Part shown: in pieces, positions 1,763 to 61,073 of the stretch
Numbering within the stretch: position 1 is the stretch's first letter
Layout: the number at the start of each line of letters is the position of its first letter
NCBI GenBank assembly: GCA_965249205.1
Contig: CBDFLL010000005.1
Span: 1,027,045-1,091,044, forward strand
Source of the DNA: Vicinamibacterales bacterium
Lineage (GTDB): Bacteria; Acidobacteriota; Vicinamibacteria; Vicinamibacterales; UBA2999
Reading direction: 5' to 3'
DNA: 64,000 bases
Made by a program: the position numbers and the translations under genes
The notes under the pieces: model-generated
Seen by the model: the letters and a program-made list of their open reading frames with translations, nothing else
What the model was told of the DNA's origin: nothing
The model's database searches: none

Positions 1763-2348
1763 TTACTAGCGGTGCATATCTAACTACTTGATTTAATTGA
1801 ACTTGTGGTGATCCCTGGAAGCACCTCCAATCGACAATCCAGCGAACTCTCGGTAGACCCTGTCTACTGCGTGAATGAGGTCAACTCCTCCGTCCCAGCG
1901 CCGCAGTTCGCATAGGCCCCAGATTCTGAAGGTTTAGACGCCTCCGGCGGCGGTGTCCTGGCGCGCAGTACCTGCCCACCAGCACAGTCCACGCCGTCCT
2001 CGACCGCCATGGGTCGGTGACCCGCCGACGGCGACGTCGGTACCGCGCGGAGGGGACTCCCCTCTCTCGGCCAGCACAGCCCAACGAGCTCTGGTGCGCG
2101 GACTACAAGGGCGAGTTCATGCTCGCCGACCGACGCTACTGTTTTCCGCTCACCGTCACGGACTTATGAGCGCCGCCGGGTTCTTCATCATCCGACCCTT
2201 TCGCTAGGCCGGCCTCTAACAGGCTGCTGAAGAACCCGGGTGATCGGGCCGTTTTCTAAGGATCATGCGAGTCACCACCGACCGACAACGGTGCGCACGG
2301 CTGTGCGCTGGCCCCGATCAAGGGGCCGGCGACACGCGCGGCCGGTGA

Positions 2349-3174
2349 TCAGGGACACCTCGCCTCCAGATTCCGCAGCCGGACCAAGTTATAGACCGTG
2401 GCGGCGAAGGTAAGCTGCCAATCCACGAGGGCGACACCGCGATGCCGGAGTTTGCGCAAGCCGCCGACGGTCTTCATCCAGCCAAAGACCTGTTCTACGA
2501 GTTTCCGTTTCCGCTGACTGACGTGATAGCCCGCATGCCGCGTGGTCCGGCCATCGATCGCACTCCAGCGGACCTTCTGAGCAACGTGGGGCGTGACGGC
2601 CCGGATACGGACAGCGGCCACAAAGCTTGCCACATCGTAGCCCTTGTCCGCCCCGACCGTGCTGCCCGGCGGCGCGCTGGCCTCCAGCAACAGCGCCGCT
2701 GCCTCGCGTTCGGCGGTCCCCGTCGCGTGAGTCGCGCAGACGTTGGCGACAAGTCCCTGTCGATTGTCCAGCAGCACGTGGCCCAGATACGCCAGCTTGG
2801 CTTCCTTCCCCTGGCCCTTCCGAGGCAGCATCGCCTCCGGATCGGTCGTCGACTGGTGCGTGTCGTTGCGCCGCCGCTCCCCGTGGAAGTTGACCGTGGG
2901 ATTCCCGGGGTCATCGGGCGGGTCGCTCTCCGCCGCGTCCCGGCACCGAAAGCTCTTCAGGCTGGCCCACGCTTCCAATTGGGTCCCATCCACAGTGAAG
3001 TGTTCGTCCGAGAGCAGCCCGGCCGCCCGCGCGTGGGCCTGCACCGCATCAAAGAAGGCGGCCGCGAGATCGCCCGCCAGCAGCCGGTCGCGATTCTTGG
3101 TAAACGTGGTGGGATGCCAAACCGGGTCGTCCAAATTCAAGCCCACGAACCAGCGGAACAGCAGGTTGTAATCC
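2349..3174 (-). pseudogene. IS5-family DDE transposase, C-terminal fragment (from ...NLLFRWFVGLNLDD to the end)
   Basis: About 275 aa identical to residues ~87-358 of the intact 358-aa transposase at 13820..14896. The N-terminus reads into the inserted IS1380-like sequence. Confidence 0.85.
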
Positions 3175-4835
3175 GGGATTTCCGTTTTGCCTGTCCCGGA
3201 TGGAGCCGTTATACACTCGAAAGCCGCCGCGCCCACGAGAATCTTCTTCATCGCACATCGTCCAGGCTCTGAGGCCGTCACTTCAGCCCGCGCTTACGTC
3301 TTGTGGGCTGAATCCCGGGCTTCCAGGGCATTCCTTCGACACCGCTCCTCACTTGTGTCCTCGCTTTGCCAAGCCGGCGTCCCTGCACGCGCCGCGCGTC
3401 AACCTGCCGGGACCGGTAGCGCCCAGATCCGCTGGAGCATTGCCCCGAACAGGCGTCGAGTCAGGTGGCTCTCCGCCAGGAACAGCCAGTAGTAGCGCGC
3501 GTGTTTTACTAACCGCGCGCCCGTCTTGACGAGGCGCTGCTGGAGACTGGTCAGCGACCAGGTGTCGATCCGCTTCGGGAGCACCAGCCGCCGCCAGAGG
3601 TTCCCGAGGTTGTAGGCCAGTACGCTCAGTTGCAAGCGGACCTCGTTCGCCCGGAACCGATGACACGACAGGCGCGTCCACTGCGCGGCCTGCTTGCCTT
3701 CCTTGATCCATTGCTCCGCCGTCCCGCGCTTATTGTAAAACCGCACGACGGCACGATTCTGGAGCGGGAGATTCGTGACGATGAAGCCGACGCGCGGGAA
3801 CAGCTCGCCGACGTGGTGCTCGACTTTTGCCACGACCCGTCGGGGCGTGGTCCAGCTGTCCGCCTGATAGCGGACACTCTTGTACCGGACCAATGGCGTG
3901 TGGCTTGGCCGTCCCGCCGGACGAAACAGGATGTCTTCGATCTCTCGCTCCAAGCTCTTGTTCGCGGGTATCCGGATCGCGTACTGGACGCCGCGTGCCT
4001 CCAGCGCCTCGTAGATCGCCGGCCGCGCGAAGGCGGCGTCGGCGCGGAAGGCCACGCGTTTGCCCTGCGCCTGCTGCCGTTCAATCTCCGGCACCAGCAG
4101 CTCGTCCCAGTCGTCCGCGCTGGAGACGTTGCCCGGTCGTAGCTTGGCCGCCAGGCAGTCCCCGTCGTCATTGAACAGAAACAGCGGGTGATAGCAGACC
4201 GTCTCGAAGTGCCCGTTGTAGGCACTGCCTTCCTGCTGCCCATGCACCGGGCTCTCGCTGGAGTCCATGTCGAGCACGACACGATCGGCGTGGGCGAACG
4301 TCTCAGCCTGTCCGACCAGGTCGCGATTCACGGCCATCAACCCGACGAGGTTCTCTTCACGGGTCAGCAGCTCGGTCTCGAACCAATGGAGCGTGGAGGT
4401 GAGGGCCGCACTCCGGTCCCACCGCGTCGGCGATCCGATCAGACGAAACGTCGGATCGGTCGAGAGACGCTGCGCGTCGTTGAGGTCTTCGTAGCCCGCC
4501 AAGCGGCTGTACACCGACTGCCGCAGGAGATCGGGCAACCGGAACTGCGTGTTCCGTCCGTGGCGGGAGTCGCGCAGGTGCGCGGCGATGAGCCCCGCAA
4601 GGCCAAGACGTTCATCCAACTCACGCACCAGAATCAAGCCGGCGTCGGAGGTGATGCGCGACCCCTGAAACGCGACCTTCAGAAACCCGTTGAACGTGAA
4701 CTGAAAGGGCGCGGTTTGTAATTCACCCACTGGGTGTCACCCTCCGTGGCCTGGTTTCTCTCGAGAAACCCGCGAAAATCAAGGCGTGACGACTGATCGC
4801 ATGGGCAAAAGTACCACAGCCAATCGGAAATCCGG
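3175..4835 (-). mobile_element. IS1380/IS4-like insertion sequence (~1661 bp) nested inside IS5 copy 1; 5-bp GTAAT target duplication
   Basis: Imperfect terminal inverted repeats CCGGGATTTCCG / CGGAAATCCGGG. GTAAT lies at 3170-3174 and 4836-4840. The element interrupts the IS5 transposase exactly between codons ...EELNY | NLLF. Confidence 0.7.
3399..4730 (-). CDS. DDE transposase, IS1380/IS4-like family
   Basis: 443-aa ORF. The N-terminal motif ITSDAGLILVRELDERLGL...LRDSR and a C-terminal DDE-type core are characteristic of IS1380-family transposases. It fills the nested element. Confidence 0.7.
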   Translation of the reverse strand: MGELQTAPFQFTFNGFLKVAFQGSRITSDAGLILVRELDERLGLAGLIAAHLRDSRHGRNTQFRLPDLLRQSVYSRLAGYEDLNDAQRLSTDPTFRLIGSPTRWDRSAALTSTLHWFETELLTREENLVGLMAVNRDLVGQAETFAHADRVVLDMDSSESPVHGQQEGSAYNGHFETVCYHPLFLFNDDGDCLAAKLRPGNVSSADDWDELLVPEIERQQAQGKRVAFRADAAFARPAIYEALEARGVQYAIRIPANKSLEREIEDILFRPAGRPSHTPLVRYKSVRYQADSWTTPRRVVAKVEHHVGELFPRVGFIVTNLPLQNRAVVRFYNKRGTAEQWIKEGKQAAQWTRLSCHRFRANEVRLQLSVLAYNLGNLWRRLVLPKRIDTWSLTSLQQRLVKTGARLVKHARYYWLFLAESHLTRRLFGAMLQRIWALPVPAG

Positions 4836-5094
4836 GGTAATTGAGCTCTTCCATCAGCAGCCGCTCGCTCCGCACCGTGTAGAGCACCTGCAGCAACAAC
4901 GCGCGCAGCAGCTGTTCCGGCGGGATCGACGGACGCCCTGTGTTGGCGTACAGGCCGGCGAACCTGCGCGACATCGTTCTCAGCGCTTCGTCCGTCAGCA
5001 CGCGAACCGCGCGGAGCGGATGGTCGGCTGGCACGCGCTGTTCCGGCGACAGGTAGCTGAACATGTGAGTGCTTTGCTCATCGTGTCCGCGCAT
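4836..5094 (-). pseudogene. IS5-family transposase, N-terminal fragment (residues 1-86)
   Basis: MRGHDEQSTHMFSYLSPEQRVPADHPLRAV...LLMEELNY is identical (one substitution) to the N-terminus of the intact copies. The frame then runs into foreign sequence. Confidence 0.8.
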
Positions 5095-5401
5095 GATGGG
5101 GCTCCCTTCAGCGGTGTTGGGAGCATGGTAGTACGCCGGGATCGATCTGTCGATCCCATTTCACGGAGTTTTTCAGCAGCCTGCTAAACCGAAACGCTAC
5201 TCAGAACCGGGGAGACGTCGCGATCTGGCCACTCTTGCCACCACATTAATTGGAAAGGCCGACGAGTCGGACTCGGCCACAACGACGAACTTGGGCAACA
5301 ACAGGCCCCCGCCCGCGGGGGCCGTCGCCGGGTCCAAGTAGGGTGCAACGGGATACTCAGCCGGGTCAGCATTGCCCGCGGGACACATAGTCAGCGCGGC
5401 A

Positions 5402-5746
5402 TCAGACGTCGAAGCTGGGTTGTGGTCGCTTCCGCCAGAGGTTGACGGCGTTGGTTCCGTCTAACGTCACAGAGCCGAGGCGAATATCGTATTGATCGCC
5501 GTCGCTCAGCTTGTAGTGGATCTCGATCCCGGCGATGTCCCAGGTGCCCTCTGTCGGCCCAGACAGATAGAGCTGGTGCGGTACGCTGCGTGGCGCGAAG
5601 CGACCCTCGAACCGCTGGCCAGGGCCGGTGCCGCCGGTCGGCTCATCAAATTCGCAGTCGAAGCCATTGAAGCAGAACCGGGGAGGCTCCCGGGTCCCCA
5701 GGCTGCCGGTCTTGATAGCCACTGTGAAGGTCTCAATGCGAGGCAT
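5402..5746 (-). CDS. Hypothetical protein
   Basis: 114-aa ORF with balanced, protein-like composition (MPRIETFTVAIKTGSLGTREPPRF...). No recognised domain. Co-oriented immediately downstream of the NifU-like gene. Confidence 0.3.
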   Translation of the reverse strand: MPRIETFTVAIKTGSLGTREPPRFCFNGFDCEFDEPTGGTGPGQRFEGRFAPRSVPHQLYLSGPTEGTWDIAGIEIHYKLSDGDQYDIRLGSVTLDGTNAVNLWRKRPQPSFDV

Positions 5747-5764
5747 GGTGTTCTCTATTTCGTA

Positions 5765-6226
5765 TCAGGAGAAGAACGGGTTGGTGCCCGCCTCATGGTC
5801 GGTGTCGTCGTAAATCGCACCAAGGCGGGGCACCGCGTCGCGAAAGGCTCGATGGATTCCTGGCTTCAGCGTGACATCGGCAGCGCTACAACCCTGACAG
5901 CCGCCGCCCATGGTGATACGCACGCTGTTCCCGTGCACCGAGTCGAGCGTGATGACGCCAGAGTGGGCCGCAATGCCGGGGTTGATCTCCTCATCGACAA
6001 CACGCTGAATATCGCTGCGGATGGCCGCCTCGTCGGGAATGGCGTCGATGACGTGCTTCGCCACGAAGGCTGTTCCGGCTGCAAGGTGCGCGCGAATCGC
6101 GGCGCCGACCTCAGCCGCCAAGGATGGCCATTGAACGTGCACATCAGCCTCGAGGCTGATCGTCAGCACTGAACCGTCGAGCAGTACCGAGTCGACCGAC
6201 GACAGGGCACGAATCGTCGCCGCCAA
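5765..6226 (-). CDS. NifU/Nfu-like Fe-S cluster assembly protein
   Basis: The C-terminal motif INPGIAAHSGVITLDSVHGNSVRITMGGGCQGCSAADVTLKPGI matches the NifU C-terminal (Nfu) domain with its CxxC pair. Confidence 0.7.
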   Translation of the reverse strand: MAATIRALSSVDSVLLDGSVLTISLEADVHVQWPSLAAEVGAAIRAHLAAGTAFVAKHVIDAIPDEAAIRSDIQRVVDEEINPGIAAHSGVITLDSVHGNSVRITMGGGCQGCSAADVTLKPGIHRAFRDAVPRLGAIYDDTDHEAGTNPFFS

Positions 6227-6778
6227 GGGGGAATCCTCTGCGACCGAGCTGCTGTCGAACTACCACGAGAACCCGCGACACAGCATCCGATTGGTCATAA
6301 AGCTACACGCCCGTCCATTGGCCGCTGGTTGGGCCTTTATCCGAACCTCACCCGACTCGCTGATCACGTCTTCTCCCCCGGAGTCACCGAGCAGCGGGGC
6401 CTCGATCACCTGGCGAGTCTTCGGGCCTTCCTCTCGGTCGCCAGGCTCGCTGGAGGTGGCGACCGTCCCGATCTCGACGGGCCGCTGAACGACCGGGAGG
6501 CGATGCCCTTGACCAGGCTGTTGATGCTGACCGTCGCCTCGTCCCGACGCGCCGCGTGCTGAAGTTTCCATATCAGCCAATCTTAATGCGCCCTATGCGC
6601 ATCGCAACGATGATTCGTCGCCGTGCCGCTGGGCGAGTATCAATCGCAGACTCCCCCCACAACCCCTCGGCTAGCTGCGTTCAGACGAAATCCCTTTGGG
6701 GGCGAAACAGGCGGATCGTGAAGTCAGCCGTATCCTGCAATTCGGTTAACTCACGTACTCGGCCATATGTCACCGGAT

Positions 6779-7171
6779 TCATGTGCCACTGTACGGCGCC
6801 ATCTCGACGAGCCCCGCTACCGCCTCCGGTTCGCTCAAACGCAGGGAAAACGTCACACGCTCGGTCTGCTGCAGGCGAAACCCCGTCGGCGCGGGCGCTT
6901 CGTTGTGGGCCTGCGGCGCGTCGTAGATCATCGCCCGAAAGGCCCGCAAATGACGCGGGCCAGGCGTGACCTCGATGAACAGCCCGTCCGGGAGCAGCAC
7001 TCGCTGGATGTGCTCAGCTGCGGAGGGCGCAAAGACCTGCAATACGGCGGCGACAGACGTATCCCGCACGGTCAGCCGATACGTGTTGGCGACGGCATGG
7101 TCGATCTGCGGCGCCGCCCGCGACGCCAGGCGAATCGCCTCCTTGGCCACATCTACCCCGTACAGACGCAC
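6779..7171 (-). pseudogene. RlmA-like class I SAM-dependent methyltransferase, C-terminal half only (N-terminal zinc-finger/SAM-binding part absent)
   Basis: The 130-aa ORF contains GVDVAKEAIRLA...LPDGLFIEVTPGPRHLRAFRAMIY, resembling the C-terminus of 23S rRNA m1G745 methyltransferase (TPGPxHL...IY). No in-frame upstream extension and no CxxC motifs, so the gene is truncated. Confidence 0.45.
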
Positions 7172-7538
7172 GTCACCCGAACCGGGGACGACACGTCGTG
7201 CGGCGTGGGGTGGTCGGCTGAATTGAGGAACGGCGGCCTAGTTCACCGGCACCAGCCGCCGCAGTTCCTCGAATCAGTTCTGCACCACGATGATCTGTGG
7301 GCGCCCGTGCTGACAGTCGCGCTATCCTTGACACCTATGCTCACGGCATGCGTCTGTAATTTTGTGTAGAGGTGGGCGCCGAGCAGTTGAAAACCACAGA
7401 GGAACGGGGGTTGCAGGAATCAAGGACGTGATCTTGGTGACGCCAGACCCCGACTACGTCTGTAACAAAAGGGGACGAACCCGACAAAGGAATTGAGGTT
7501 CGCCCACATGGCACCCTGAAGACATCGATGGAGACCAG

Positions 7539-8327
7539 ATGACTGAAGAGGAACAACCCCTACTGCTCCGCGAGACCGCCGAGGGCATTGCTACGCTGAC
7601 ACTGAACCGGCCAAGGCAACGCAATTCGCTGTCGATGGCGTTAATGCGTGCGATCAATGAAGCACTCGCGGACATCGCCGAAGACAGCGACGTCAAAGTC
7701 GTCATCATTCGCGGCAACGGCCCTGCGTTTTGTTCGGGGCACGACCTGAAGGAAATGCGCGCGGATGACCGTGAGGAGGCGCATACCCGGACGCTGAAGG
7801 AATGCGCCAAGATGATGACAAGGATCGTTGAACTACCCAAGCCGGTCATCGCACGCGTGCACGGCATTGCGACGGCCGCTGGCTGCCAGCTTGTCGCGAC
7901 CTGTGATCTGGCCATCGCCGCCTCCGACGCACGCTTCGCCACGCCCGGCGTCAACCTCGGCCTGTTTTGTTCGACGCCGATGGTGGCGTTGAGCCGCAAT
8001 GTGAGCCGGAAACATGCAATGGAGATGCTGTTGACGGGCGAGATGGTTGATGCGGCAACGGCCGAACGGTTCGGCCTGATCAACCGCTCGGTCGCTCTGA
8101 GCGAACTTGACAACGCAGTGCATGCGCTGGCGGCCAGGATTTGTTCGAAGTCCGCTGTCGCCGTCGAAATAGGCAAAGTGGCCTTCTACAAACAGCTTGA
8201 GGTTGGCCTCACGGAGGCTTACGAGTACACGGGCGCTGTCATGGTGCGAAATATGATGACCCACGATGCCGGAGAGGGCATCGATGCATTCATCGAGAAA
8301 CGCCAGCCGGAATGGACCGGCACCTGA
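7539..8327 (+). CDS. Enoyl-CoA hydratase/isomerase (crotonase family)
   Basis: 262 aa. LTLNRPRQRNSLSMALMRAINEALADIAEDSDVKVVIIRGNGPAFCSGHDLKEM is the canonical crotonase fold signature. Confidence 0.85.
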   Translation: MTEEEQPLLLRETAEGIATLTLNRPRQRNSLSMALMRAINEALADIAEDSDVKVVIIRGNGPAFCSGHDLKEMRADDREEAHTRTLKECAKMMTRIVELPKPVIARVHGIATAAGCQLVATCDLAIAASDARFATPGVNLGLFCSTPMVALSRNVSRKHAMEMLLTGEMVDAATAERFGLINRSVALSELDNAVHALAARICSKSAVAVEIGKVAFYKQLEVGLTEAYEYTGAVMVRNMMTHDAGEGIDAFIEKRQPEWTGT

Positions 8328-8382
8328 TTCAACGAATCGATGTCACAAGGGCACTGACGCCCCTATGTGTCAAGACATTCCT

Positions 8383-9459
8383 TTAGGCGGCCTGGGTGAC
8401 GTGTTGGCGCATGCGGAAGTCTGTCATAACCCGTTGGTAAATCTCGCGGGCGAGAAAGCGTTTGAGGCACCGGATGATCTCGCGTTTGGTCCGGCCGTCA
8501 GTGGTGCGTCGTGCGACGTAGGCGACGGTCGGCTGGTGGAACCGCATCCGGACGATGACGGCTCGATAGAGGGCGGCGTTCGCCTGTCGGTGGCCGCCAC
8601 GATTGAGGCGGTGCCGGCCGGTGGTCCTTCCGGACGAGGCCGGGATCGGACACGCGCCGCAGAGCTTCGCGAAGGCAGCTTCCGAGCGAATCCGGTCGGG
8701 GTTGTCGCCGAAGAGGATGAGCAGCTGGGCCGCGGTACCGGCGCCGACCCCGAAGCCCTCACGGAGGGTGGGCGACGTCTCAGTCGTGAGTCGGTCGAGG
8801 TACTGGTCGTGCGTCGCGATTTCCTCGGCGAGAGCGATCCAGCGACGGGCCAGCGCCCGGAGCGTGTGCTTGCCGGAGGCGGTGGGCGTGTCGAGGGGGC
8901 CCGGTCGGAGTCCGGCGCAGCGCGTGAGCAAGCCGTGATCAGGAAGGCCTTGGAGGACTTCTCGCAGCCCGGGCGGCGCGTTCACGACGATCTGCTTCAG
9001 CGTGATCATCGCCGTGGTGCGCGCCTTCACCGCGGTATCCCGGGCGATTTTGAGTTGGCGCATCATCTCGACGGCGCCGTCCGCGGTCTTGGGAGTCGCC
9101 GTCGATTGGCCCGCCAACACCGACCGGGCGGCGGCCTCGGCGTCGATGGTGTCGGACTTGCCGGCGGCTCGGCGCAGGCGCCGGTCGCCTCGGTTCACTT
9201 CCGCGACGCGATGCCCCGCTCGGCGGACCGCACGCACCAGGCCTGCGCCATAACTGCCGGTGCCCTCGATGCCGAACGCTTCGATCCGTCCGTGGGTGTC
9301 GGCCCACATGAGCAGGGACCGATAGCCGCCCGAATCAGCGACGAACGATTGAGCGCCCAAGCGGATCCCCCTGGTGTCGATCGCCACCGCGACGTGGACA
9401 TGCTTGTGGGTATCGACCCCGACGATCACCTTCTGCGCATCGGGCTGGGTGGTCATGTT
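8383..9459 (-). CDS. IS110-family transposase (probable start at MTTQPDAQKVIVGVDTHK)
   Basis: The N-terminal DEDD-type motif VIVGVDTHKHVHVAVAID and the C-terminal region are characteristic of the IS110/IS116/IS902 family. Confidence 0.85.
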   Translation of the reverse strand, partial: NMTTQPDAQKVIVGVDTHKHVHVAVAIDTRGIRLGAQSFVADSGGYRSLLMWADTHGRIEAFGIEGTGSYGAGLVRAVRRAGHRVAEVNRGDRRLRRAAGKSDTIDAEAAARSVLAGQSTATPKTADGAVEMMRQLKIARDTAVKARTTAMITLKQIVVNAPPGLREVLQGLPDHGLLTRCAGLRPGPLDTPTASGKHTLRALARRWIALAEEIATHDQYLDRLTTETSPTLREGFGVGAGTAAQLLILFGDNPDRIRSEAAFAKLCGACPIPASSGRTTGRHRLNRGGHRQANAALYRAVIVRMRFHQPTVAYVARRTTDGRTKREIIRCLKRFLAREIYQRVMTDFRMRQHVTQAA

Positions 9460-9567
9460 GTTGGTCACCGGGTACCTCCTCAGGTGCGACCGCAGGCTGG
9501 CCCGGGTGGGCGGACAGGACTGTGACGGGCCGTCGTTGCAGCAGGCCCCTATTGGGTCACGGCCCAT
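8383..9567 (-). mobile_element. IS110-family insertion sequence (exact ends not determined; IS110 elements lack clear inverted repeats and duplications)
   Basis: Span of the transposase ORF plus leader. Sits in the intergenic region between the crotonase and cytochrome c genes. Confidence 0.55.
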
Positions 9568-10027
9568 CCGGTCAGCTGGCTGCCGTACGGTTTACCGGCG
9601 GGTGGTGGCCGACAGATCAATAGCGAGGACCGTCGGTCAGTCAAGTTGCGGGTCAGGCCACCACCCACCGGCGCCCATCGGTGTCACTGAGCGACCCCGG
9701 CAGGTAGGAGGATCATGCTCACAGTCAAGTTGACGAGACGAGGGCGCCGCGATCCGTCGAACTGGTGTCAGACGTTTGGTCCCGCCTACGCCCGGCTACT
9801 CCGCCATCAACGCGGGCGGCTGGGCACTAACCGCAGGCGTTGAAGTCTGCCTGATCGGTTAGCGGCGGAAAAAATAGAATGTCGCCAGCTTCGGCGCTAC
9901 AAGCGAGGTCGTTCGTGGGTCTGACATTGGCCTCAAGCGCTCTGCTCTCCTACCTTCGGACGCTTCGTAACCTTTCTGCTCTTGGCAATCTCCGGAGACG
10001 GCATCTCACGCGGCAGCGGTGTGAGCC

Positions 10028-11050
10028 CTACTGGGGCGGCAGTGAGCCGAGATATGAGGAAATCGCGATGATGTCATCGTCCGTCAGATTGGCGACGACA
10101 CGCTTCATCAACTCCGCAGCCTTCCCCGCGCTCGAGCCATATCGCATAAGGAAGAGCTGTCGCGCGACATACCGCGGTTGCAGTCCAGCGAGCCGCGGGA
10201 CTTCGCCCAGGCCTAACTGTGCCTCGCCGTGACACAGCGCGCATTGCACCGTCTTGCCGGATGTGTCGCCTTCGACCAACGCCTCGCCTCTGGCGATACT
10301 GCCGGGTGGCACGTACGCGATAAACCCGGCACGCGGGTCCCGGATTGCGGTGCCGAACGGATCCGCAGGGATTTGAAGAATACGGCGTCCAATCGGCTCG
10401 GTGCCTCCGTCCGGATCGAGCTGACGATGACGGCCCTGGGTGCCGATGAACGTCTTCGGCGGCGTGGCGGTCTCGATGACCTCCACAAATTTCGTCGGTG
10501 TCAAAGCGGCGAAATACTCGGCGGCCTCCCGAACGTCCTCGTCCGACGTGAGCTGCGCGATGCGGCCCATGCGGTGCTCTTCCTTGCGCGTACCCGCCTT
10601 GTAGTACGCCATCTGCCGGATAAAGTACTCGACCGGCAAACCGGCGAGGTCGGCGGATTCCGGATGGCCCTGGCCGGACATCAGATGGCACGCGCCGCAC
10701 GCGAATCGGATCCCCGGACCGCCTGTTACCGATCGTGGCGCGGGCGGGTGTTCGTCGGGAAACCAGTCAGGCGGAGTCAAGCTCCCGGCGATCTCGGCAG
10801 CGTCGTACTCTATCGCACTGCCGGGCACCCGCACGATGCCTTCCGGCCGCATGGGACCGTACGCGGCGTTCTCGTCGGGGATGTTGAACGCCCACTCTGG
10901 GAGTCCTTCTGGGTGTGTGAGCGCCGTCTGCGCGCTGGGTTCCTGCGCGACCAGGAGCGAAGCGAGGGCGCACACGAGGACGGCGATGCGGGAGGGTGTG
11001 CTCGTTCGAAGGATTCGGCGGATCATGGCGACTCCCTCTCCCATTCTCAA
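10028..11050 (-). CDS. Di-haem cytochrome c (secreted)
   Basis: N-terminal signal peptide followed by two CxxCH haem-binding motifs (CGACH and CALCH), each with downstream Met-containing segments. Confidence 0.75.
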   Translation of the reverse strand: MRMGEGVAMIRRILRTSTPSRIAVLVCALASLLVAQEPSAQTALTHPEGLPEWAFNIPDENAAYGPMRPEGIVRVPGSAIEYDAAEIAGSLTPPDWFPDEHPPAPRSVTGGPGIRFACGACHLMSGQGHPESADLAGLPVEYFIRQMAYYKAGTRKEEHRMGRIAQLTSDEDVREAAEYFAALTPTKFVEVIETATPPKTFIGTQGRHRQLDPDGGTEPIGRRILQIPADPFGTAIRDPRAGFIAYVPPGSIARGEALVEGDTSGKTVQCALCHGEAQLGLGEVPRLAGLQPRYVARQLFLMRYGSSAGKAAELMKRVVANLTDDDIIAISSYLGSLPPQ

Positions 11051-11579
11051 TAAACGTCGACCATAAATTACCCTGGTAAGCGTGACGAAGTCTACCAGAT
11101 GGGACCGAAAGGCTGGCTATATTGGAACTGCTAATTCAGGTGTCAGATAACAGCCTACGAGTTCGATGGCGTAGAACGGCGAGCCCGAGTCAGAAGCGGC
11201 GTCCCCACCGGGATTCGATACCTTGCGTAACTCCGTTATCGCGGTCGGGTTCGACTTCTCGGGCTCGGTGCGACTCGCCTCCTGAGTCGGCTGCTTAGTT
11301 CTTCGGCACCAGCCGCCGAATCCTCAAGTGTGTTCGTGGCGTCCTAAGTTGTTGCGCTAAGAAAACTTGTGCGATGACCTCGCCACAGGCGTCTTGCAAA
11401 TCAGGAGAGTCAAAGGGCCGACAGATACGTGTGGCTGGCAGTGCCGGCCTACTGGTTCTGGGTGTAGATATTCACCTGGACTTGCACCGGCCGACCCGCG
11501 GCCATCCCTCGATGCTACGCGTTGAGAGAGTAGCGAGAGAGGCCCTGGGCCCCTCTCGCCTGTGTGCCGGCCATCTCGC

Positions 11580-12573
11580 CTATTTCCCGCTCTTTCCAGA
11601 CTTCTCGCTTTTCGCGCTTTTCTTACTCTTTTGGCTCTTTGCTGCGAAGGCCGGCGTGGCGGTGGCGGTCGCCGCGTTGCCCGAACCGTCCACGCACGTG
11701 ACCGTCAGCTCGAACGCCGGTCCGTCGAGACTGAGGATGGCGTCACCCTTCTCACTCTTGCCACTCTTGCCACTCTTGCCGCTCTTGCCGCTCTTGGCCT
11801 TCTTGACCTGGAGTTCCACGATCTGCCCGTTGGTGACCTCCACGCCGTTCAACGTCGCGGTCGTGATCGCGGGGTCGCTGTCGCAGGCGTCCGTACAGCT
11901 GAACTGCACCTCGAACGTCCCCTTGTTCTTCTTGACGTCGATGGGCACGAGTGCGGCTGTGACCACGGGCGGCGTCGTATCGACCACGGTCACGCTGACC
12001 GTGTCGCTGTCGGTGCCGCCCTTGCCGTCGTCCACCGTCAGCGTGAACTCGTGCGCGCCGAGTGGCAAGATCGGGTTGATGACCGCGCCGCCGAGCGACC
12101 CGGGTTCCCACGTGTAGGTCAGCGCGTCGCCGTCAGGGTCACTCGACCCGGACCCATCGAGCGTCACCGCGGCACAGCCGGCCTTGGGCCCGCCGCACTC
12201 GACCGCCGGTTGATCCGGACCCGCGTCTGCGATCGGCGCCTGATTCGAGGGCGTGAGCTTGAACACATATGCCGCGCCGGCGTTTGCCGCGCTGTTGTCG
12301 GTGTCGTCTCCATTGACCCCTGTCGCGCTGCTGTCCTCGCGCGACCCGACCACCACCGTGTCCCCCCGACACCGCGACACTGAAGCCGAAAAGGTCGAAA
12401 ACCCCGGTGTCGGACGGCTTCAGGTAATCCTGCTGGCTCCAGGTACTCCCGCTTCGCGTGAACACGTACGCCGCCCCGGCAGCATTCACGCTGTTGTCGG
12501 TCTCGTCCCCGCCGACGCCCGTCGCGTTGCTGCTTTCGAAGTACGCGCCGACGGCCACCGTGTCTCCCGACAC
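11580..12573 (-). pseudogene. FG-GAP repeat / PKD-domain surface protein with a C-terminal lysine-rich (KSGKSGK) tail; frameshifted near a C6 run (~12365-12372) and 5'-truncated by an IS481 insertion
   Basis: Two overlapping minus-strand ORFs (12139..12573 and 11580..12380) each carry FG-GAP-like repeats (VAVGAYFESSNATGVGGDETDNS...AAYVF). A PKD-like domain (DAGPDQPAVECGG...TLDGSGSSDPDGDALTYTW) and SGKSGKSGKSGKSEKG repeats follow. The frames join only with a 1-nt shift at gtgtccccccgacacc. The upstream coding region is replaced by IS481. Confidence 0.6.
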
Positions 12574-12646
12574 CGCAACGCTGATGCCGAGCCGATCGGA
12601 CGACTCGGCGTTGGACGCCTTGAGGTACGCCTGCTGGCTCCAGCTA

Positions 12647-13686
12647 GATGTCTTTGCTAAACACGTTGTTCATCCGGAGCACTCTGAAAAGAATGGAGTT
12701 TCCAGACCACCGTTCTGACCAGAGGAGGCCCCGGATGACGCTTCATCGTAATGCCAAGACGACCCCGACTTCGCGCCTGGAATTGGTGCGCCGTGTCCTG
12801 TTCGATGAGTGGGCGCACGACGCCGTGGCCGAGGGCTACGGCGTAAGTGTCCGCACGGTTGCGAAATGGGTGCGCCGGTTCCGCGAAGAGGGTGCAGCCG
12901 GGCTGGAGGACCGATCGTCCCGGCCGCAGCGGACTCCGCATGTCACGCCGGCGATCCGGGTCACGTTCATCCGGCAGCTCCGCGAGCAACACGGCCTGCC
13001 GGCCTGGGCCATTGCCCGCGCCTTGCGGATGCCCCGCTCGACGGTGGGGGCCTGGCTGCGGCGGCTGGGACTCAACCGGCTCCCAGGCCCGCCGCCCGTC
13101 CCGATCCAGCGCTACGAGTGGCCGCACCCTGGCGATCTGCTACACGTGGACATCAAGCCGCTGGGGCGCTTTCGGCGTGTAGGCCATCGGATTCATGGGA
13201 ATCCCCGGCAGGCGTCACCGGGGGCGGGCTGGGAGTACGTGCATGTGGCGGTGGACGACCATACGCGGCTGGCCTACGTCGAGGTCCTGGGCGACCAGAC
13301 GGGGACCACCTGTGCCGCTTTCTTGGACCGAGCCGTCGCTTGGTACGCGGCGCGGCAGATCACCGTCCATCGCGTCATGAGCGATAACGGCAGCGGCTAC
13401 GTGTCCCGGCGGTTTCGGACAGCCTGTCAGGCCCACGCGCTGCGCCATCTGCGGACGCGCCCCTATACGCCGCGGACCAACGGCAAGGCTGAGCGCTTCA
13501 TTCAGACGCTGCTGCGTGAGTGGGCCTATGTCCAGCCGTATCAGACGTCTCGCCACCGCCGGCGAGCCCTTCGCCCGTGGCTGCGCTACTACAATCACGA
13601 CCGGCCGCACGCCAGCTTGCACTATGAACCGCCCGTGTCACGACTCACGAGTGCTGCGTGATGAACAACGTGTTTGACTTCAACAC
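12647..13686 (+). mobile_element. IS481-family insertion sequence (~1040 bp) with ~16-bp terminal inverted repeats (AAACACGTTGTTCATC); inserted at a CTAG site
   Basis: Left end tgtctttgctAAACACGTTGTTCATC, right end GATGAACAACGTGTTTgacttcaacac. CTAG occurs on both flanks (12641-12644 and 13687-13690). Confidence 0.75.
12735..13661 (+). CDS. IS481-family transposase (integrase-core DDE); the ORF may start at 12648
   Basis: N-terminal HTH, catalytic core HVDIKPLGRF...GWEYVHVAVDDHTRLAYVEVL...SDNGSGYVSRRF and C-terminal NHDRPHASL are typical of IS481/rve-type transposases. Confidence 0.85.
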   Translation: MTLHRNAKTTPTSRLELVRRVLFDEWAHDAVAEGYGVSVRTVAKWVRRFREEGAAGLEDRSSRPQRTPHVTPAIRVTFIRQLREQHGLPAWAIARALRMPRSTVGAWLRRLGLNRLPGPPPVPIQRYEWPHPGDLLHVDIKPLGRFRRVGHRIHGNPRQASPGAGWEYVHVAVDDHTRLAYVEVLGDQTGTTCAAFLDRAVAWYAARQITVHRVMSDNGSGYVSRRFRTACQAHALRHLRTRPYTPRTNGKAERFIQTLLREWAYVQPYQTSRHRRRALRPWLRYYNHDRPHASLHYEPPVSRLTSAA

Positions 13687-13690: not shown

Positions 13691-14985
13691 CAGGCTGCTG
13701 AAGAACCCGGGTGATCGGGCCGTTTTCTAAGGATCATGCGAGTCACCACCGACCGACAACGGTGCGCACGGCTGTGCGCTGGCCCCGATCAAGGGGCCGG
13801 CGACACGCGCGGCCGGTGATCAGGGACACCTCGCCTCCAGATTCCGCAGCCGGACCAAGTTATAGACCGTGGCGGCGAAGGTAAGCTGCCAATCCACGAG
13901 GGCGACACCGCGATGCCGGAGTTTGCGCAAGCCGCCGACGGTCTTCATCCAGCCAAAGACCTGTTCTACGAGTTTCCGTTTCCGCTGACTGACGTGATAG
14001 CCCGCATGCCGCGTGGTCCGGCCATCGATCGCACTCCAGCGGACCTTCTGAGCAACGTGGGGCGTGACGGCCCGGATACGGACAGCGGCCACAAAGCTTG
14101 CCACATCGTAGCCCTTGTCCGCCCCGACCGTGCTGCCCGGCGGCGCGCTGGCCTCCAGCAACAGCGCCGCTGCCTCGCGTTCGGCGGTCCCCGTCGCGTG
14201 AGTCGCGCAGACGTTGGCGACAAGTCCCTGTCGATTGTCCAGCAGCACGTGGCCCAGATACGCCAGCTTGGCTTCCTTCCCCTGGCCCTTCCGAGGCAGC
14301 ATCGCCTCCGGATCGGTCGTCGACTGGTGCGTGTCGTTGCGCCGCCGCTCCCCGTGGAAGTTGACCGTGGGATTCCCGGGGTCATCGGGCGGGTCGCTCT
14401 CCGCCGCGTCCCGGCACCGAAAGCTCTTCAGGCTGGCCCACGCTTCCAATTGGGTCCCATCCACAGTGAAGTGTTCGTCCGAGAGCAGCCCGGCCGCCCG
14501 CGCGTGGGCCTGCACCGCATCAAAGAAGGCGGCCGCGAGATCGCCCGCCAGCAGCCGGTCGCGATTCTTGGTAAACGTGGTGGGATGCCAAACCGGGTCG
14601 TCCAAATTCAAGCCCACGAACCAGCGGAACAGCAGGTTGTAATTGAGCTCTTCCATCAGCAGCCGCTCGCTCCGCACCGTGTAGAGCACCTGCAGCAATA
14701 ACGCGCGCAGCAGCTGTTCCGGCGGGATCGACGGACGCCCTGTGTTGGCGTACAGGCCGGCGAACCTGCGCGACATCGTTCTCAGCGCTTCGTCCGTCAG
14801 CGCGCGAACCGCGCGGAGCGGATGGTCGGCTGGCACGCGCTGTTCCGGCGACAGGTAGCTGAACATGTGAGTGCTTTGCTCATCGTGTCCGCGCATGATG
14901 GGGCTCCCTTCAGCGGTGTTGGGAGCATGGTAGTACGCCGGGATCGATCTGTCGATCCCATTTCACGGAGTTTTTCAGCAGCCTG
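13691..14985 (-). mobile_element. IS5-family insertion sequence copy 2 (1295 bp), intact; CTAG 4-bp duplications; inserted into the right CTAG duplication of the IS481 element
   Basis: Termini CAGGCTGCTGAAGAACCCGGG...CACGGAGTTTTTCAGCAGCCTG. CTAG at 13687-13690 and 14986-14989. Confidence 0.9.
13820..14896 (-). CDS. IS5-family DDE transposase (358 aa)
   Basis: Full-length ORF identical to the copies at 38103..39179 and 59868..60944. YTAR-type target and 4-bp duplication fit the IS5 group. Confidence 0.9.
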   Translation of the reverse strand: MRGHDEQSTHMFSYLSPEQRVPADHPLRAVRALTDEALRTMSRRFAGLYANTGRPSIPPEQLLRALLLQVLYTVRSERLLMEELNYNLLFRWFVGLNLDDPVWHPTTFTKNRDRLLAGDLAAAFFDAVQAHARAAGLLSDEHFTVDGTQLEAWASLKSFRCRDAAESDPPDDPGNPTVNFHGERRRNDTHQSTTDPEAMLPRKGQGKEAKLAYLGHVLLDNRQGLVANVCATHATGTAEREAAALLLEASAPPGSTVGADKGYDVASFVAAVRIRAVTPHVAQKVRWSAIDGRTTRHAGYHVSQRKRKLVEQVFGWMKTVGGLRKLRHRGVALVDWQLTFAATVYNLVRLRNLEARCP

Positions 14986-15456: not shown

Positions 15457-15458
15457 TG

Positions 15459-17321: not shown

Positions 17322-17334
17322 ACGCCTGCCCTCC

Positions 17335-17700: not shown

Positions 17701-17830
17701 TACCGTTGCGCCTCAATGAACATGACGATGAGGGGCATTGCCACCCATGCTGCGACTAAGACCTTGACCGGCCACGACGTCTCCGCGTGGGCCCACTTCG
17801 CCACCGCGACCAGCGCCGAGAACCGAGCCC

Positions 17831-24913: not shown

Positions 24914-24926
24914 CTCGTCGTCGCGT

Positions 24927-47750: not shown

Positions 47751-47759
47751 AGCGCTTTT

Positions 47760-48025
47760 TATGACCGTGTGGCGTTCGAGTAGCAGCAATGCCAAAAATG
47801 GTTACGGCATTCGGCGGGACCGAAGCGTTGCAGTAGTGCGTGCAGAAGTACCATGACTCGCCCAGTCAGTACAGGGGCTCTTTGAAAAGCGCTCTAGCGC
47901 GGATTTCATGAGCGGGTAGCCCCCCCGCAGCCCAACGCCGGCATGGTTTCGGCACTCGGTCGAGTGCAGCGTCAGGAGTACCACGCCCGCGCACTACGTA
48001 CAAGTGAAATCCGCGTTGGACCTGA
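47760..48025. repeat. Intergenic tandem pair of ~120-bp repeat units downstream of the oxidase gene
   Basis: Unit A ~47763-47890 and unit B ~47895-48022 share blocks such as (a)gtacca(t/c)g(a/c)c(t/c)cgc(c/g)c(a/a)(g/c)t(c/a)(a/c)gtaca(g/a)g. Unit B is bounded by the inverted pair CGCGGATTTCA / TGAAATCCGCG. The 20-mer TAGCGCGGATTTCATGAGCG recurs at 61501. Confidence 0.5.
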
Positions 48026-48051: not shown

Positions 48052-48606
48052 CTACCGGCCGCTGAGATCGGCCGACCCGTTCACGCGCGTCTTGAAGCGC
48101 CAACCCTGCGGGGTCTTGACCAGCGTGTCTGTGTACTGGCTGACACGTGTGATGACGGCTGGGCTCTGGGCGACGTCGACAAACAGATTCAGAACAATGC
48201 CGCTGGCCCCCTCAGCGGTGGCTGTAATCAAGGGTGTCAGCGGGGCGTGCCGCACAGTTGATGAAGAGCGGCCCCTGACGAAATCGAGCAACGCTTGGCG
48301 GCCCACACGATTGCCAAACGATCCGTCCTCCGTGAACAGGTTCGCGTAGACCTCCGCGTCGCCGCTGTCGAGCGCCACGGGGTACCGGAAGTACAGCTGC
48401 AAAATTTCTGCGTAGTCGTTTCCCGTGAGTGCGGGGACGCTGGTCTGGGCGAGGGCCGGACACGCCAGCCCGACGACAAGGACAATGACTGCGATGAAAC
48501 GGCCGCGGCCTCGCAGGCCGGCCACACAGGGAAACAGGCGATCTGGATGCATATGGTTACTCGTCGCGGACCAGTGACCAACCCGCATGGAGGCGGCCTG
48601 CCGCAT
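48052..48606 (-). CDS. Secreted SnoaL-like/NTF2-fold protein (start uncertain)
   Basis: Signal-like hydrophobic segment (FIAVIVLVVGLACPALA) followed by YFRYPVALDSGDAEVYANLFTEDGSF, typical of NTF2-like domains. Confidence 0.45.
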   Translation of the reverse strand: MRQAASMRVGHWSATSNHMHPDRLFPCVAGLRGRGRFIAVIVLVVGLACPALAQTSVPALTGNDYAEILQLYFRYPVALDSGDAEVYANLFTEDGSFGNRVGRQALLDFVRGRSSSTVRHAPLTPLITATAEGASGIVLNLFVDVAQSPAVITRVSQYTDTLVKTPQGWRFKTRVNGSADLSGR

Positions 48607-55192: not shown

Positions 55193-56143
55193 GTGCCTGT
55201 AACATGCGCGCCTCCCGACAAGAGCCTTCCAAGAACAGACCCTGTGCCGCTCTCCACTCCTCTCCTCGAAGCTCAACTGAGCGGACTCACGCTGCATCGC
55301 CAGGGTAAAGTTCGCGAACTTTACGAGGTCGACGACGCGCTTCTCATGGTCGCCACCGACCGCATCTCCGCGTTCGACTTCGTGCTCGGCTCGGGCATTC
55401 CTGACAAAGGCAAAGTGCTCACGCAGCTGTCTGCATTCTGGTTTGACAGGACGCGTGACATTGTGGCGAACCACGTCATTGAAACCGATGTCAGCCGGTA
55501 CCCCGCGCAGCTCAGAGGGTACGCCGACATGCTCGCAGGGCGATCGATGCTGGTTCGTAAGGCGGCGCCTGTGCCAGTTGAATGTGTCGCGCGGGGCTAT
55601 CTGTCAGGGTCAGGCTGGACCGACTACTGCGCCACGGGCGCCGTCTGCGGCGTACGGCTCCCCCCTGGTCTGCGGCAGTCCGACCGGCTCCCCGAGCCGA
55701 TCTTCACCCCCGCCAGCAAGGCCACGAGCGGCCACGATATCAACATCAGCGAGGCTGAAGCTGCGGACCTCATCGGCGGGCCGCTGATGCAGAGACTCCG
55801 AGGCTTGACCATGGCACTCTATGCGCGTGGCGCGGAGCACGCGGACAGCTGCGGGATCGTGCTCGCCGATACGAAATTCGAGTTCGGCCTCACGACCGAC
55901 GACCACATTCTCCTGATCGATGAAGTCATGACGCCGGATTCCTCTCGCTACTGGCCGAAGGACGAGTATCGCCCTGGCCGGGCACAGCCGAGCTTCGACA
56001 AGCAGTTCGTTCGCGACTATCTGGAACAGATCAATTGGAACAAGCAACCGCCGGTGCCGTCGCTCCCTGAAGACGTGGTGACGCGCACGCGCGCGAAGTA
56101 CATTGCGGCATTTCGCCGGCTGACGGGTAAGGACCTGAACTGA
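55193..56143 (+). CDS. purC: Phosphoribosylaminoimidazole-succinocarboxamide (SAICAR) synthase
   Basis: GKVRELYEVDDALLMVATDRISAFD...LADTKFEFG...DEVMTPDSSRYW are PurC signatures. Confidence 0.9.
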   Translation: MPVTCAPPDKSLPRTDPVPLSTPLLEAQLSGLTLHRQGKVRELYEVDDALLMVATDRISAFDFVLGSGIPDKGKVLTQLSAFWFDRTRDIVANHVIETDVSRYPAQLRGYADMLAGRSMLVRKAAPVPVECVARGYLSGSGWTDYCATGAVCGVRLPPGLRQSDRLPEPIFTPASKATSGHDINISEAEAADLIGGPLMQRLRGLTMALYARGAEHADSCGIVLADTKFEFGLTTDDHILLIDEVMTPDSSRYWPKDEYRPGRAQPSFDKQFVRDYLEQINWNKQPPVPSLPEDVVTRTRAKYIAAFRRLTGKDLN

Positions 56144-56360
56144 TGGCATTGCGCGAAGAACTCGAACGCCTCGTCGACAACATGGTTGCCAAGGGTGTCC
56201 GCTACGACGATGCCGCAGCGGGAGTTCGAAAAGCGTTTCATCGCACGCGCCCTGGCGGGAACCGGCGGCAACCTCGGGAAGGCTGCGGGCCTCCTGGGCA
56301 TGCACCGCAACACCCTGAGCCGCAAGGTCACCGAGTATCGGCTGCGCCGTTCCGCGTAAG
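56143..56360 (+). pseudogene. Fis-family small HTH DNA-binding protein, apparently frameshifted (or a 49-aa product from the internal ATG at 56202)
   Basis: Frame A gives MALREELERLVDNMVAKGVRYDDAAAG... The Fis-type HTH EFEKRFIARALAGTGGNLGKAAGLLGMHRNTLSRKVTEYRLRRSA* is in the +1 frame. ATG overlaps the purC stop. Confidence 0.4.
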
Positions 56361-59520: not shown

Positions 59521-59778
59521 GAAGCGCAGTTCGGGCGGGCGCCCGTCGTCGGGCCGCACCGACAGGTGGCTGGACCTGGGTAACTCCTCAGGCGGTACGC
59601 GCTTTTGATCGGTCGGCATTACGTTGGTGGTAAATACGAACTGGTCCCGCACGCGCGGAACCTCTCAAAATCATACTCTGTGAACTCACTTGCCGTCGCG
59701 TGGGCAAGACTGGTACCTCAGCTTGAACATGCCGCGTCTTGCAGAGCGCTACACCACAGTACGAAGACTAGACTCTAG

Positions 59779-61073
59779 CAGGCTGCTGAAAAACTCCGTG
59801 AAATGGGATCGACAGATCGATCCCGGCGTACTACCATGCTCCCAACACCGCTGAAGGGAGCCCCATCATGCGCGGACACGATGAGCAAAGCACTCACATG
59901 TTCAGCTACCTGTCGCCGGAACAGCGCGTGCCAGCCGACCATCCGCTCCGCGCGGTTCGCGCGCTGACGGACGAAGCGCTGAGAACGATGTCGCGCAGGT
60001 TCGCCGGCCTGTACGCCAACACAGGGCGTCCGTCGATCCCGCCGGAACAGCTGCTGCGCGCGTTGTTGCTGCAGGTGCTCTACACGGTGCGGAGCGAGCG
60101 GCTGCTGATGGAAGAGCTCAATTACAACCTGCTGTTCCGCTGGTTCGTGGGCTTGAATTTGGACGACCCGGTTTGGCATCCCACCACGTTTACCAAGAAT
60201 CGCGACCGGCTGCTGGCGGGCGATCTCGCGGCCGCCTTCTTTGATGCGGTGCAGGCCCACGCGCGGGCGGCCGGGCTGCTCTCGGACGAACACTTCACTG
60301 TGGATGGGACCCAATTGGAAGCGTGGGCCAGCCTGAAGAGCTTTCGGTGCCGGGACGCGGCGGAGAGCGACCCGCCCGATGACCCCGGGAATCCCACGGT
60401 CAACTTCCACGGGGAGCGGCGGCGCAACGACACGCACCAGTCGACGACCGATCCGGAGGCGATGCTGCCTCGGAAGGGCCAGGGGAAGGAAGCCAAGCTG
60501 GCGTATCTGGGCCACGTGCTGCTGGACAATCGACAGGGACTTGTCGCCAACGTCTGCGCGACTCACGCGACGGGGACCGCCGAACGCGAGGCAGCGGCGC
60601 TGTTGCTGGAGGCCAGCGCGCCGCCGGGCAGCACGGTCGGGGCGGACAAGGGCTACGATGTGGCAAGCTTTGTGGCCGCTGTCCGTATCCGGGCCGTCAC
60701 GCCCCACGTTGCTCAGAAGGTCCGCTGGAGTGCGATCGATGGCCGGACCACGCGGCATGCGGGCTATCACGTCAGTCAGCGGAAACGGAAACTCGTAGAA
60801 CAGGTCTTTGGCTGGATGAAGACCGTCGGCGGCTTGCGCAAACTCCGGCATCGCGGTGTCGCCCTCGTGGATTGGCAGCTTACCTTCGCCGCCACGGTCT
60901 ATAACTTGGTCCGGCTGCGGAATCTGGAGGCGAGGTGTCCCTGATCACCGGCCGCGCGTGTCGCCGGCCCCTTGATCGGGGCCAGCGCACAGCCGTGCGC
61001 ACCGTTGTCGGTCGGTGGTGACTCGCATGATCCTTAGAAAACGGCCCGATCACCCGGGTTCTTCAGCAGCCTG
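59779..61073 (+). mobile_element. IS5-family insertion sequence copy 4 (1295 bp), intact; CTAG duplications
   Basis: Termini as in the other copies, in inverted orientation. CTAG at 59775-59778 and 61074-61077. Confidence 0.9.
59868..60944 (+). CDS. IS5-family DDE transposase (358 aa)
   Basis: Identical to 13820..14896. Confidence 0.9.
   Translation: MRGHDEQSTHMFSYLSPEQRVPADHPLRAVRALTDEALRTMSRRFAGLYANTGRPSIPPEQLLRALLLQVLYTVRSERLLMEELNYNLLFRWFVGLNLDDPVWHPTTFTKNRDRLLAGDLAAAFFDAVQAHARAAGLLSDEHFTVDGTQLEAWASLKSFRCRDAAESDPPDDPGNPTVNFHGERRRNDTHQSTTDPEAMLPRKGQGKEAKLAYLGHVLLDNRQGLVANVCATHATGTAEREAAALLLEASAPPGSTVGADKGYDVASFVAAVRIRAVTPHVAQKVRWSAIDGRTTRHAGYHVSQRKRKLVEQVFGWMKTVGGLRKLRHRGVALVDWQLTFAATVYNLVRLRNLEARCP

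Follow-up and report, generated by a model that had tools for sequence, protein, structure and literature searches.

Nested and adjacent insertion sequences in a variable segment of a Vicinamibacterales genome, and a depleted target tetranucleotide that several of them appear to share

Insertion sequences (ISs) of the IS5 group within the IS5 family, whose type is IS5 of Escherichia coli, duplicate 4 bp of target DNA at YTAR, and the target of IS481 in Bordetella is NCTAGN. A preference of IS630 for the TA within CTAG is listed in Table 1 of PMC2577343, which cites Tenzen and Ohtsubo (1991). Expansions of ISs have been described in recently specialised pathogens and symbionts (Shigella, Bordetella pertussis, Yersinia pestis and Burkholderia mallei), where they take the form of near-identical copies of a few families, IS-interrupted genes, and ISs at breakpoints. 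Mobile elements are also abundant and recently duplicated in Acidobacteria (PMC3469429), and Candidatus Solibacter usitatus Ellin6076 carries many transposases that are 90–100% identical, together with phage-derived genes but no intact prophage (PMC3469429). Here, we analyzed a 64,000-nt stretch of DNA (hereafter, the window; 65% G+C) from a Vicinamibacterales bacterium of the phylum Acidobacteriota (assembly GCA_965249205.1, contig CBDFLL010000005.1, positions 1,027,045–1,091,044, forward strand), in which nine IS copies from five families, four of them near-identical copies of one IS5-family element, occur in nested and adjacent arrangements.

All of the IS families and mechanisms encountered in the window are already known, and the elements are new members of them. 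The IS5 element resembles the IS5 group in its transposase (a DUF772 and a DDE domain, matching NF033581), its size (~1.3 kb), its short terminal inverted repeats, and its YTAR-type duplication of CTAG or CTAA. Ellin6076 belongs to the same phylum, but to another order, and IS3, ISL3, IS66, and IS110 predominate there (PMC3469429), whereas IS5, IS481, IS1595, and IS1380 predominate in the window. The pathogen and symbiont expansions differ in that we observed neither a sign of genome reduction nor damage to the core, the relatives are environmental genomes of ~5 Mb, and the damage lies in a variable segment. With respect to known CTAG-targeting elements, the IS481 copy is flanked by CTAG, as in Bordetella, and an IS630-type miniature inverted-repeat transposable element (MITE) duplicates the TA inside CTAG. 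What differs is that three families apparently converge on one depleted tetranucleotide in a single genome, with adjacent and nested elements as the outcome.

The interpretation that we favor, with a probability of roughly 0.7, is that the window comprises an insertion-tolerant variable segment joined to a core block of the genome of a free-living bacterium, that the lineage is prone to bursts of IS activity, and that nesting arises through the shared CTAG target. The variable segment, with its degraded genes and truncated prophage, would extend over ~1–39 kb, and the conserved core block over ~39–64 kb. Selection would have left most insertions either in the dispensable segment or at the ends of genes.

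IS families were assigned by Pfam and NCBIfam profile searches, using the curated NCBIfam cut-offs. Six transposases, representing five families, all scored above these cut-offs and their Pfam matches were concordant. The inventory comprises four copies of IS5, two of IS1595, and one each of IS1380, IS110, and IS481 (Table 1). A first-pass annotation made from the sequence had listed the same nine copies and five families, and each was recovered within a few bases of where it had been placed; for IS110, the span given there was that of the open reading frame (ORF), beyond which the element extends at both ends. Comparison of the window with itself revealed a repeat of ~1.3 kb with four copies, of which one is split by a 1664-nt insert, and a tandem period of 1052 nt at 35.1–37.2 kb, but no further repeats or MITE families, as the extra matches were internal repeats of the tape-measure, protease, and FG-GAP genes. 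When a MITE and an older IS remnant, both additional to the nine copies, are included, mobile DNA amounts to ~18% of the window and ~26% of its left part. Eight of the nine IS copies are located to the left of 39.3 kb, and the core block contains one IS5 copy and the MITE.

The IS5 transposase matched NF033581 with 273.7 bits (cut-off, 140), and PF05598 and PF01609 above their gathering thresholds. The element is 1295 nt long, ends in 16-nt terminal inverted repeats (CAGGCTGCTGAAGAAC and CAGGCTGCTGAAAAAC) that match at 15 of 16 positions, and is flanked by CTAG or CTAA as a 4-bp target duplication. The four copies, which had been described as identical, are in fact 99.85–99.92% identical. Copy 4 equals their consensus, and copies 1, 2, and 3 each differ from it by one private single-nucleotide polymorphism (SNP), giving a star pattern around copy 4. 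Copies 2–4 do encode the same protein, while the split transposase gene of copy 1 carries an A32V substitution.

For comparison of the right part of the window (39263–64000), we used metagenome contigs that encode an identical NrdR protein and share 98.3–98.5% identity with it; for the left part (1–12647), we used contigs that encode an identical 114-aa protein and share 94–99.5% identity. Individual contigs are referred to below by an L number where they need to be told apart. Three relatives of ~98.5% identity (L080–L082) lack IS5 copy 4, which is thus a simple insertion. The idea that IS5 transposed recently, raised in the first-pass annotation, is supported because the copies differ by no more than one SNP each and because copy 4 is missing from these three relatives. 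We infer that a single IS5-family element is active now or was so very recently, and that one master sequence gave rise to no fewer than four insertions.

The window's IS5 is probably an uncatalogued isoform. Its nearest transposase relatives, all in long-read metagenome-assembled genomes (MAGs) of Vicinamibacterales, are 86–94% identical at the amino-acid level. An exact 42-nt pattern from the IS5 end found zero matches in species-representative genomes, which places the source outside that set. One closed Vicinamibacterales chromosome of 5.4 Mb carries 25 full-length copies of an IS5 variant that are at least 99.6% identical to each other, and another Vicinamibacterales MAG carries 33 full-length copies that are at least 99.07% identical within that genome. 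Both variants, the nearest copies that we found, are only 86–90% identical to the IS5 of the window. The genomes with related IS5 variants are environmental MAGs of 4.65–5.4 Mb. Recent bursts that arose separately, in normal-sized genomes, agree with the picture of Acidobacteria as rich in mobile elements (PMC3469429), and not with that of host-restricted decay.

Support for a shared target comes from the scarcity of CTAG and from its position at the element junctions. The window contains 32 CTAG sites, as compared to 206 expected from base composition (ratio 0.16), and seven of the 32 lie at element junctions. Among related IS5 copies in other genomes, 60 of 70 are flanked by CTAG on both sides, and a few have mismatched flanks. 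At 15 of 140 IS5 flanks in other Vicinamibacterales genomes another repeated sequence begins right at CTAG, and some of these 15 flanks start with IS1380-like ends. By a rough estimate, 15 of 140 is about what a random choice among the scarce CTAG sites would give, and therefore no special attraction between elements is required. We suggest that IS5, IS481, and the IS630-type MITE share CTAG, a sequence strongly depleted in the genome, as their target, and that each insertion, by duplicating the target, provides fresh CTAG/CTAA sites at the element ends, so that new copies would come to lie beside or inside old ones. The nested and adjacent arrangement would then arise because the choice of target is shared and every insertion duplicates it. 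This simple rule, one rare shared target duplicated at insertion, accounts for nested and adjacent elements without a special mechanism. CTAG also overlaps the TAG stop codon of plsY, of the FAD-oxidase gene, and of two phage genes, and because this overlap is frequent many insertions end up at the ends of genes, where they do no harm.

At 2–5 kb, the nesting has three levels: the IS1380-family element lies in IS5 copy 1, which itself lies in an older remnant. Relative to L086, the whole of 1986–5220 is a single insert at position 10526 of that contig. The outermost sequence (1986–2215 + 5188–5220) looks like the remnant of a transposase gene ending in ...PNELWCADYKGEFMLADRRYCFPLTVTDL*; it shares 80% identity with L045 (4520–4698) across 179 nt, and in our own reading its translation resembles the start of an rve-type domain, although its 67 aa matched no Pfam or NCBIfam profile. 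The innermost element has a transposase that matched NF033539 with 363.4 bits (cut-off, 180) as well as PF13701, ends of the form CCGGGATTTCCG.../...CGGAAATCCGGGG, and a 5-nt target duplication, GTAAT, at 3168–3172 and 4837–4841, as judged against the three uninterrupted IS5 copies; duplications in the IS1380 family measure 4–5 bp.

A second cluster is formed by the IS481-family element and IS5 copy 2. The IS481 family has inverted repeats that begin with TGT and a short target duplication. Here, the transposase matched NF033577 with 297.6 bits (cut-off, 224), the ends of the element read (A)TGTCTTTGCTAAACACGTTGTTCATC and (G)TGTTGAAGTCAAACACGTTGTTCATC, and the two CTAG sequences at its borders correspond to a single CTAG in L086. 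The order in which IS481 and IS5 copy 2 inserted cannot be deduced, because all three junctions read CTAG.

The MITE is the third type of element at CTAG. It is absent from five relatives of the same species, with the empty site reading GCGACTAGCGCGG (in L092). Its two halves (positions 1–75 and 79–143 of the query 47751–47893) are ~80% identical to both ends of L008 4356–5377, an IS630-family element of ~1.02 kb with a DDE_3/NF033545 transposase in another Vicinamibacterales genome. On the basis of this similarity we classify 47750–47894 as an IS630-type MITE, that is, a non-autonomous IS630 derivative.

A comparison of synteny with the relatives, a check that the first-pass annotation had proposed, recovered the unoccupied target of three elements (IS110, the MITE, and IS5 copy 4), and it set the two parts of the window apart. 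The region homologous to the variable segment in L086–L089 contains IS256 at a density of five or six copies per 20 kb, these copies being 99.7–99.9% identical, as well as transposases of the IS200/IS605 type (Y1) and of ISAzo13; none of these three kinds of transposase was found in the window. The counterpart of the core block in the relatives, 31 kb in all, contains no IS. The core block itself (39–64 kb) is collinear with the relatives and intact, except for one possible 1-nt frameshift. The suggestion that this could simply be an accessory region, offered as a fallback in the first-pass annotation, therefore fits best: the 39-kb segment holds most of the damaged genes and all but one of the nine IS copies, and it is IS-dense in the relatives, too.

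The comparison also revealed breaks of synteny at two of the four IS5 copies (copies 2 and 3). The right flank of copy 3 is the native stop-codon CTAG of plsY. Five relatives have the order plsY-gpsA-ftsY-ribD, with three of them covering the junction, and the order in the relatives continues with ribE-ribBA, whereas the neighbor of plsY in the window is IS5 copy 3, beyond which lies unrelated DNA. The left flank of copy 3 is unrelated to the gpsA side of the relatives. Similarly, the DNA to the right of copy 2 is not a continuation of the FG-GAP/PKD gene, whose missing 5′ end is not there. Rearrangement mediated by ISs is plausible at both copies, and the two breaks probably result from recombination of one IS5 copy with another. 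An inversion between copies 3 and 4 was considered as the cause of the mismatched flanks of copy 3 and was rejected, as copy 4 is collinear on either side with the unoccupied site of the relatives.

A bolder version of our interpretation, which we regard as less likely than not, is that, in a single species of free-living soil acidobacterium, strains that are ~98% identical each carry an expansion of their own IS family at one chromosomal segment, IS5 in the window and IS256 in the relatives, and that unrelated families competing for CTAG would generate self-extending pile-ups. If true, this would imply fast cycles of IS invasion and loss in large natural populations, without host restriction.

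Several points weigh against the interpretation that we favor. The description of the bacterium as free-living rests on its relatives being environmental MAGs of ~5 Mb, rather than on sample metadata. The relatives used for the left part are not the same contigs as those used for the right part, and may not be the same strains. Both IS density and pseudogene load refer to the 64-kb window rather than to the source genome. At IS5 copy 4, the empty site in all three relatives (L080–L082; ~4270–4280 in L080) is CTTAG, while the window implies CTAG, a 1-nt difference. Finally, an assembly wrongly joined within a repeat of 1.3 kb would produce exactly such breaks of synteny as those at IS5 copies 2 and 3.

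The last of these points leads to the alternative that survives best, although we think it rather improbable, namely that the ISs are real but that part of the structure is an artefact of assembly, with the joins at IS5 copies 2 and 3 being chimeras of strains or loci in a metagenome assembly from long reads, and the frameshifts and nonsense codon being consensus errors. The breaks fall exactly at the ends of the repeat, the flanks of copy 3 derive from two target sites, and the relatives, as probably the source too, are metagenome assemblies; moreover, the frameshift in the Fis-like gene is a single extra C. However, long reads normally span repeats of 1.3 kb, and the few IS5 copies with mismatched flanks in related genomes indicate that copy 3 is not alone in this respect. 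The consensus also appears fairly clean, because only four single-base indels are private to the window in the 24.5 kb aligned to relatives. At the consensus level, three frameshift or nonsense cases that are independent of the IS elements are indistinguishable from assembly errors, whereas the truncation of the FG-GAP gene by IS481 and that of the RlmA-like gene do not depend on single-base accuracy.

Far less probable, in our judgment, is that the window reflects genome-wide IS expansion and gene decay in a lineage recently restricted to a host or passed through a bottleneck, comparable to Shigella, B. pertussis, or B. mallei. Within 64 kb, several IS copies are near-identical, no fewer than seven genes are damaged or truncated, and synteny is broken at IS5 copies. 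Exact copies of the IS5, IS481, and IS1595 transposases are present on 6, 4, and 5 contigs, respectively, of the apparent source assembly (the longest of which is 1.83 Mb), and thus the IS elements are not limited to the window; proteins of the window were matched exactly on a contig of 1,599,306 bp. On the other hand, contigs of 1.83, 1.60, and 1.02 Mb in that assembly do not suggest a small genome, and the related genomes that harbor dozens of related IS5 copies are the environmental MAGs mentioned above. The 25-kb core block is intact but for one 1-nt indel, and the damage is concentrated where the relatives also vary. Of the proposal in the first-pass annotation that the genome is undergoing IS-driven decay or rearrangement, gene inactivation stands and rearrangement is plausible, given the flanks of copy 3 and the plsY junction, but decay does not agree with the intact core within the window, and its comparison to host-restricted or bottlenecked lineages is not borne out.

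We give just as little credence to a composite transposon, in which IS5 copies 2 and 3 would have carried the prophage remnant and the IS1595 pair in as one unit: the two copies share an orientation, lie 23 kb apart bracketing 14990–37969, and have CTAG outer flanks and synteny breaks at both outer junctions, but matching outer CTAGs are nearly uninformative when CTAG is the usual target, the outer flanks (IS481/FG-GAP versus plsY) are adjacent in no relative, and the inner flanks are CTAG and CTAA, as from two independent insertions.

Pile-ups of ISs are often read as a sign of host restriction or of a bottleneck, and here the same pattern occurs in what appears to be an environmental genome of normal size. 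We therefore advise caution in inferring host restriction from a single window, because the pile-up is concentrated in the dispensable segment of an apparently normal environmental genome. In practical terms, the analysis provides element boundaries (Table 1), a recently active IS5 variant, and two junctions, at IS5 copies 2 and 3, that should be treated with caution in the structure of the contig.

Table 1. Mobile elements, damaged genes, and prophage remnant in the window
Feature	Position in the window	Strand	Remarks
IS remnant (older inserted element), ~263 nt	1986–2215 + 5188–5220	+	Hosts IS5 copy 1
IS5 copy 1	2220–3172 + 4842–5183 (1295 nt in total)	−	Flanks CTAA/CTAA; element and transposase gene split by the IS1380 element
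IS1380-family element	3173–4836 (1664 nt; 443-aa transposase)	−	Inside IS5 copy 1
nfuA	5765–6571	−	In-frame stop codon at 6260–6262
RlmA-like class I methyltransferase fragment	6779–7190	−	N-terminal part missing
IS110-family element	8357–9724 (1368 nt)	−	Transposase ORF 8383–9567; non-coding left end 9568–9724 (157 nt)
FG-GAP/PKD gene	11580–12647	−	IS481 lies 19 nt inside the coding sequence, first 6 codons cut off; frameshift near 12364–12392
IS481-family element	12648–13686 (1039 nt)	+	Imperfect inverted repeats of ~26 nt; CTAG on both sides
IS5 copy 2	13691–14985	−	Flanks CTAG/CTAG; left CTAG common with the right end of IS481; synteny break
Prophage remnant	16031–34877	−	Head, neck, tail, and lysis genes
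Phage gene following the capsid gene	30792–31153	−	Frameshift near 30960–30990
IS1595-family pair, head-to-tail	35093–36138 + 36145–37190 (2 × 1046 nt)	+	Spacer CGCGAC; one SNP (35537/36589)
IS5 copy 3	37974–39268	−	Flanks mismatched, CTAA left and CTAG right; synteny break; cuts ORF 37412–37984
IS630-type MITE	47750–47894 (145 nt)		At the TA of the CTAG that is the stop codon of the FAD-oxidase/Fe-S gene; no transposase gene
Fis-like HTH_8 gene	56143–56358	+	One extra C at 56214 relative to three relatives; 71 aa in the relatives
IS5 copy 4	59779–61073	+ (inverted relative to the other copies)	Flanks CTAG/CTAG; intergenic, between tatA-like and TonB_C genes

The transposase of the IS110-family element matched NF033542 with 155.9 bits (cut-off, 140), along with PF01548 and PF02371 (DEDD transposase). 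The element has neither terminal inverted repeats nor a target duplication, and is absent from L086–L088, with the empty site in L086 reading CACTG|TCAAGTTGACG. Its left end had no match in Rfam at the gathering threshold. The predicted fold of 9568–9745 is more stable than those of shuffled sequences (z = −3.2), and the left end contains CAACTTGACTG, the same sequence that spans the left junction of the element. In the IS110 family, a non-coding end encodes a guide (bridge) RNA that matches the target and the element ends, and the left end may be a candidate for such a guide. Nearby, L086–L088 lack a stretch of ~207 nt (9819–10025) that in the window separates IS110 from the end of the cytochrome c gene at its stop codon; we saw no inverted repeats or duplication there, and the segment could be a small insertion in the window or a deletion in the relatives. 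A further difference from L086 lies at 11137–11500 (L086 3626–4556), where the relatives have a PqqD-family gene and the window has 364 nt of unrelated sequence.

The head-to-tail IS1595 pair and the IS1380 element inside IS5 copy 1 correspond to the tandem and nested arrangements that the first-pass annotation had noted, the two IS1595 copies being separated by a spacer of 6 nt. Their transposase matched NF033547 with 181.6 bits (cut-off, 75), PF12760 (zinc ribbon), and PF12762 (ISXO2-like DDE), and the inverted repeats are 29–37 nt long. The outer flanks of the pair, GTAGAC and GTCGAC, agree at 5 of 6 positions. Ten copies on other contigs, 90% identical, share the 1046-nt core and have 6-nt direct repeats (CGCGAC, GTAGGC, and GCCGAG), and their targets resemble TA-N6-TA. 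The target duplication usual for the IS1595 family is 8 bp, and although the repeats of these copies are 6 nt long, we did not count this detail against membership. The pair may have moved as a single unit via its outer ends, or, alternatively, a second copy may have entered the duplicated target of the first, with flanks exchanged later.

The first-pass annotation had named four damaged genes (FG-GAP/PKD, RlmA-like, a phage gene, and Fis-like), and all four are damaged in this sequence. Our analysis adds the MITE, the IS remnant, a nonsense codon in nfuA, two truncated ORFs, and the truncation of the prophage. In L086, the FG-GAP/PKD gene is intact and encodes 361 aa. The RlmA-like fragment lies within a 581-nt segment (6659–7239) that is absent from the relatives. 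An intact nfuA of 268 aa is present in L086, L087, L090, and L091; two relatives among L086–L089 have a shortened nfuA (148 and 157 aa). The two truncated ORFs are one of 72 aa, cut by the insert at 5221, and the one interrupted by IS5 copy 3 (Table 1). When the frames of the phage gene are joined, its match to phrog_1732 extends from 41 to 74 profile positions, while the repaired gene has no Pfam match. In the core block, the SnoaL_4 gene (48052–48606) has an extra G at 48242 relative to all six relatives; the ORF of the window, at 184 aa, spans the whole SnoaL_4 domain, whereas the gene is called as 99–104 aa in the relatives, which may have a shorter or damaged version.

The prophage remnant encodes a head protease, decoration protein, capsid, connector, glycosyltransferase and methyltransferase morons, neck protein, tail terminator, chaperone, tape measure, tail fibre, and CHAP lysin, and we found no portal, terminase, or integrase gene within 16031–34877. 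A scan of the window with Rfam at the gathering threshold gave zero matches, including no tRNA that might serve as a phage attachment site. Frameshifts in the phage genes at 27–30.4 kb, where ORFs overlap, were considered and rejected, as a frame plot of G+C at third codon positions shows ordinary consecutive genes. Capsid proteins at least 90% identical to that encoded at 31356–32645 are found on the 1.83-Mb and 1.02-Mb contigs, apparently of the same assembly, and the genome may thus hold several related prophages that would be further substrates for recombination. The moron block, with its glycosyltransferase and methyltransferase genes, occupies 27090–30228, between the head-tail connector and neck genes. 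Next to this prophage, a HicB-like antitoxin gene (15032–15484; phrog_497, E = 4e-20) is situated between its lysis end and IS5 copy 2.

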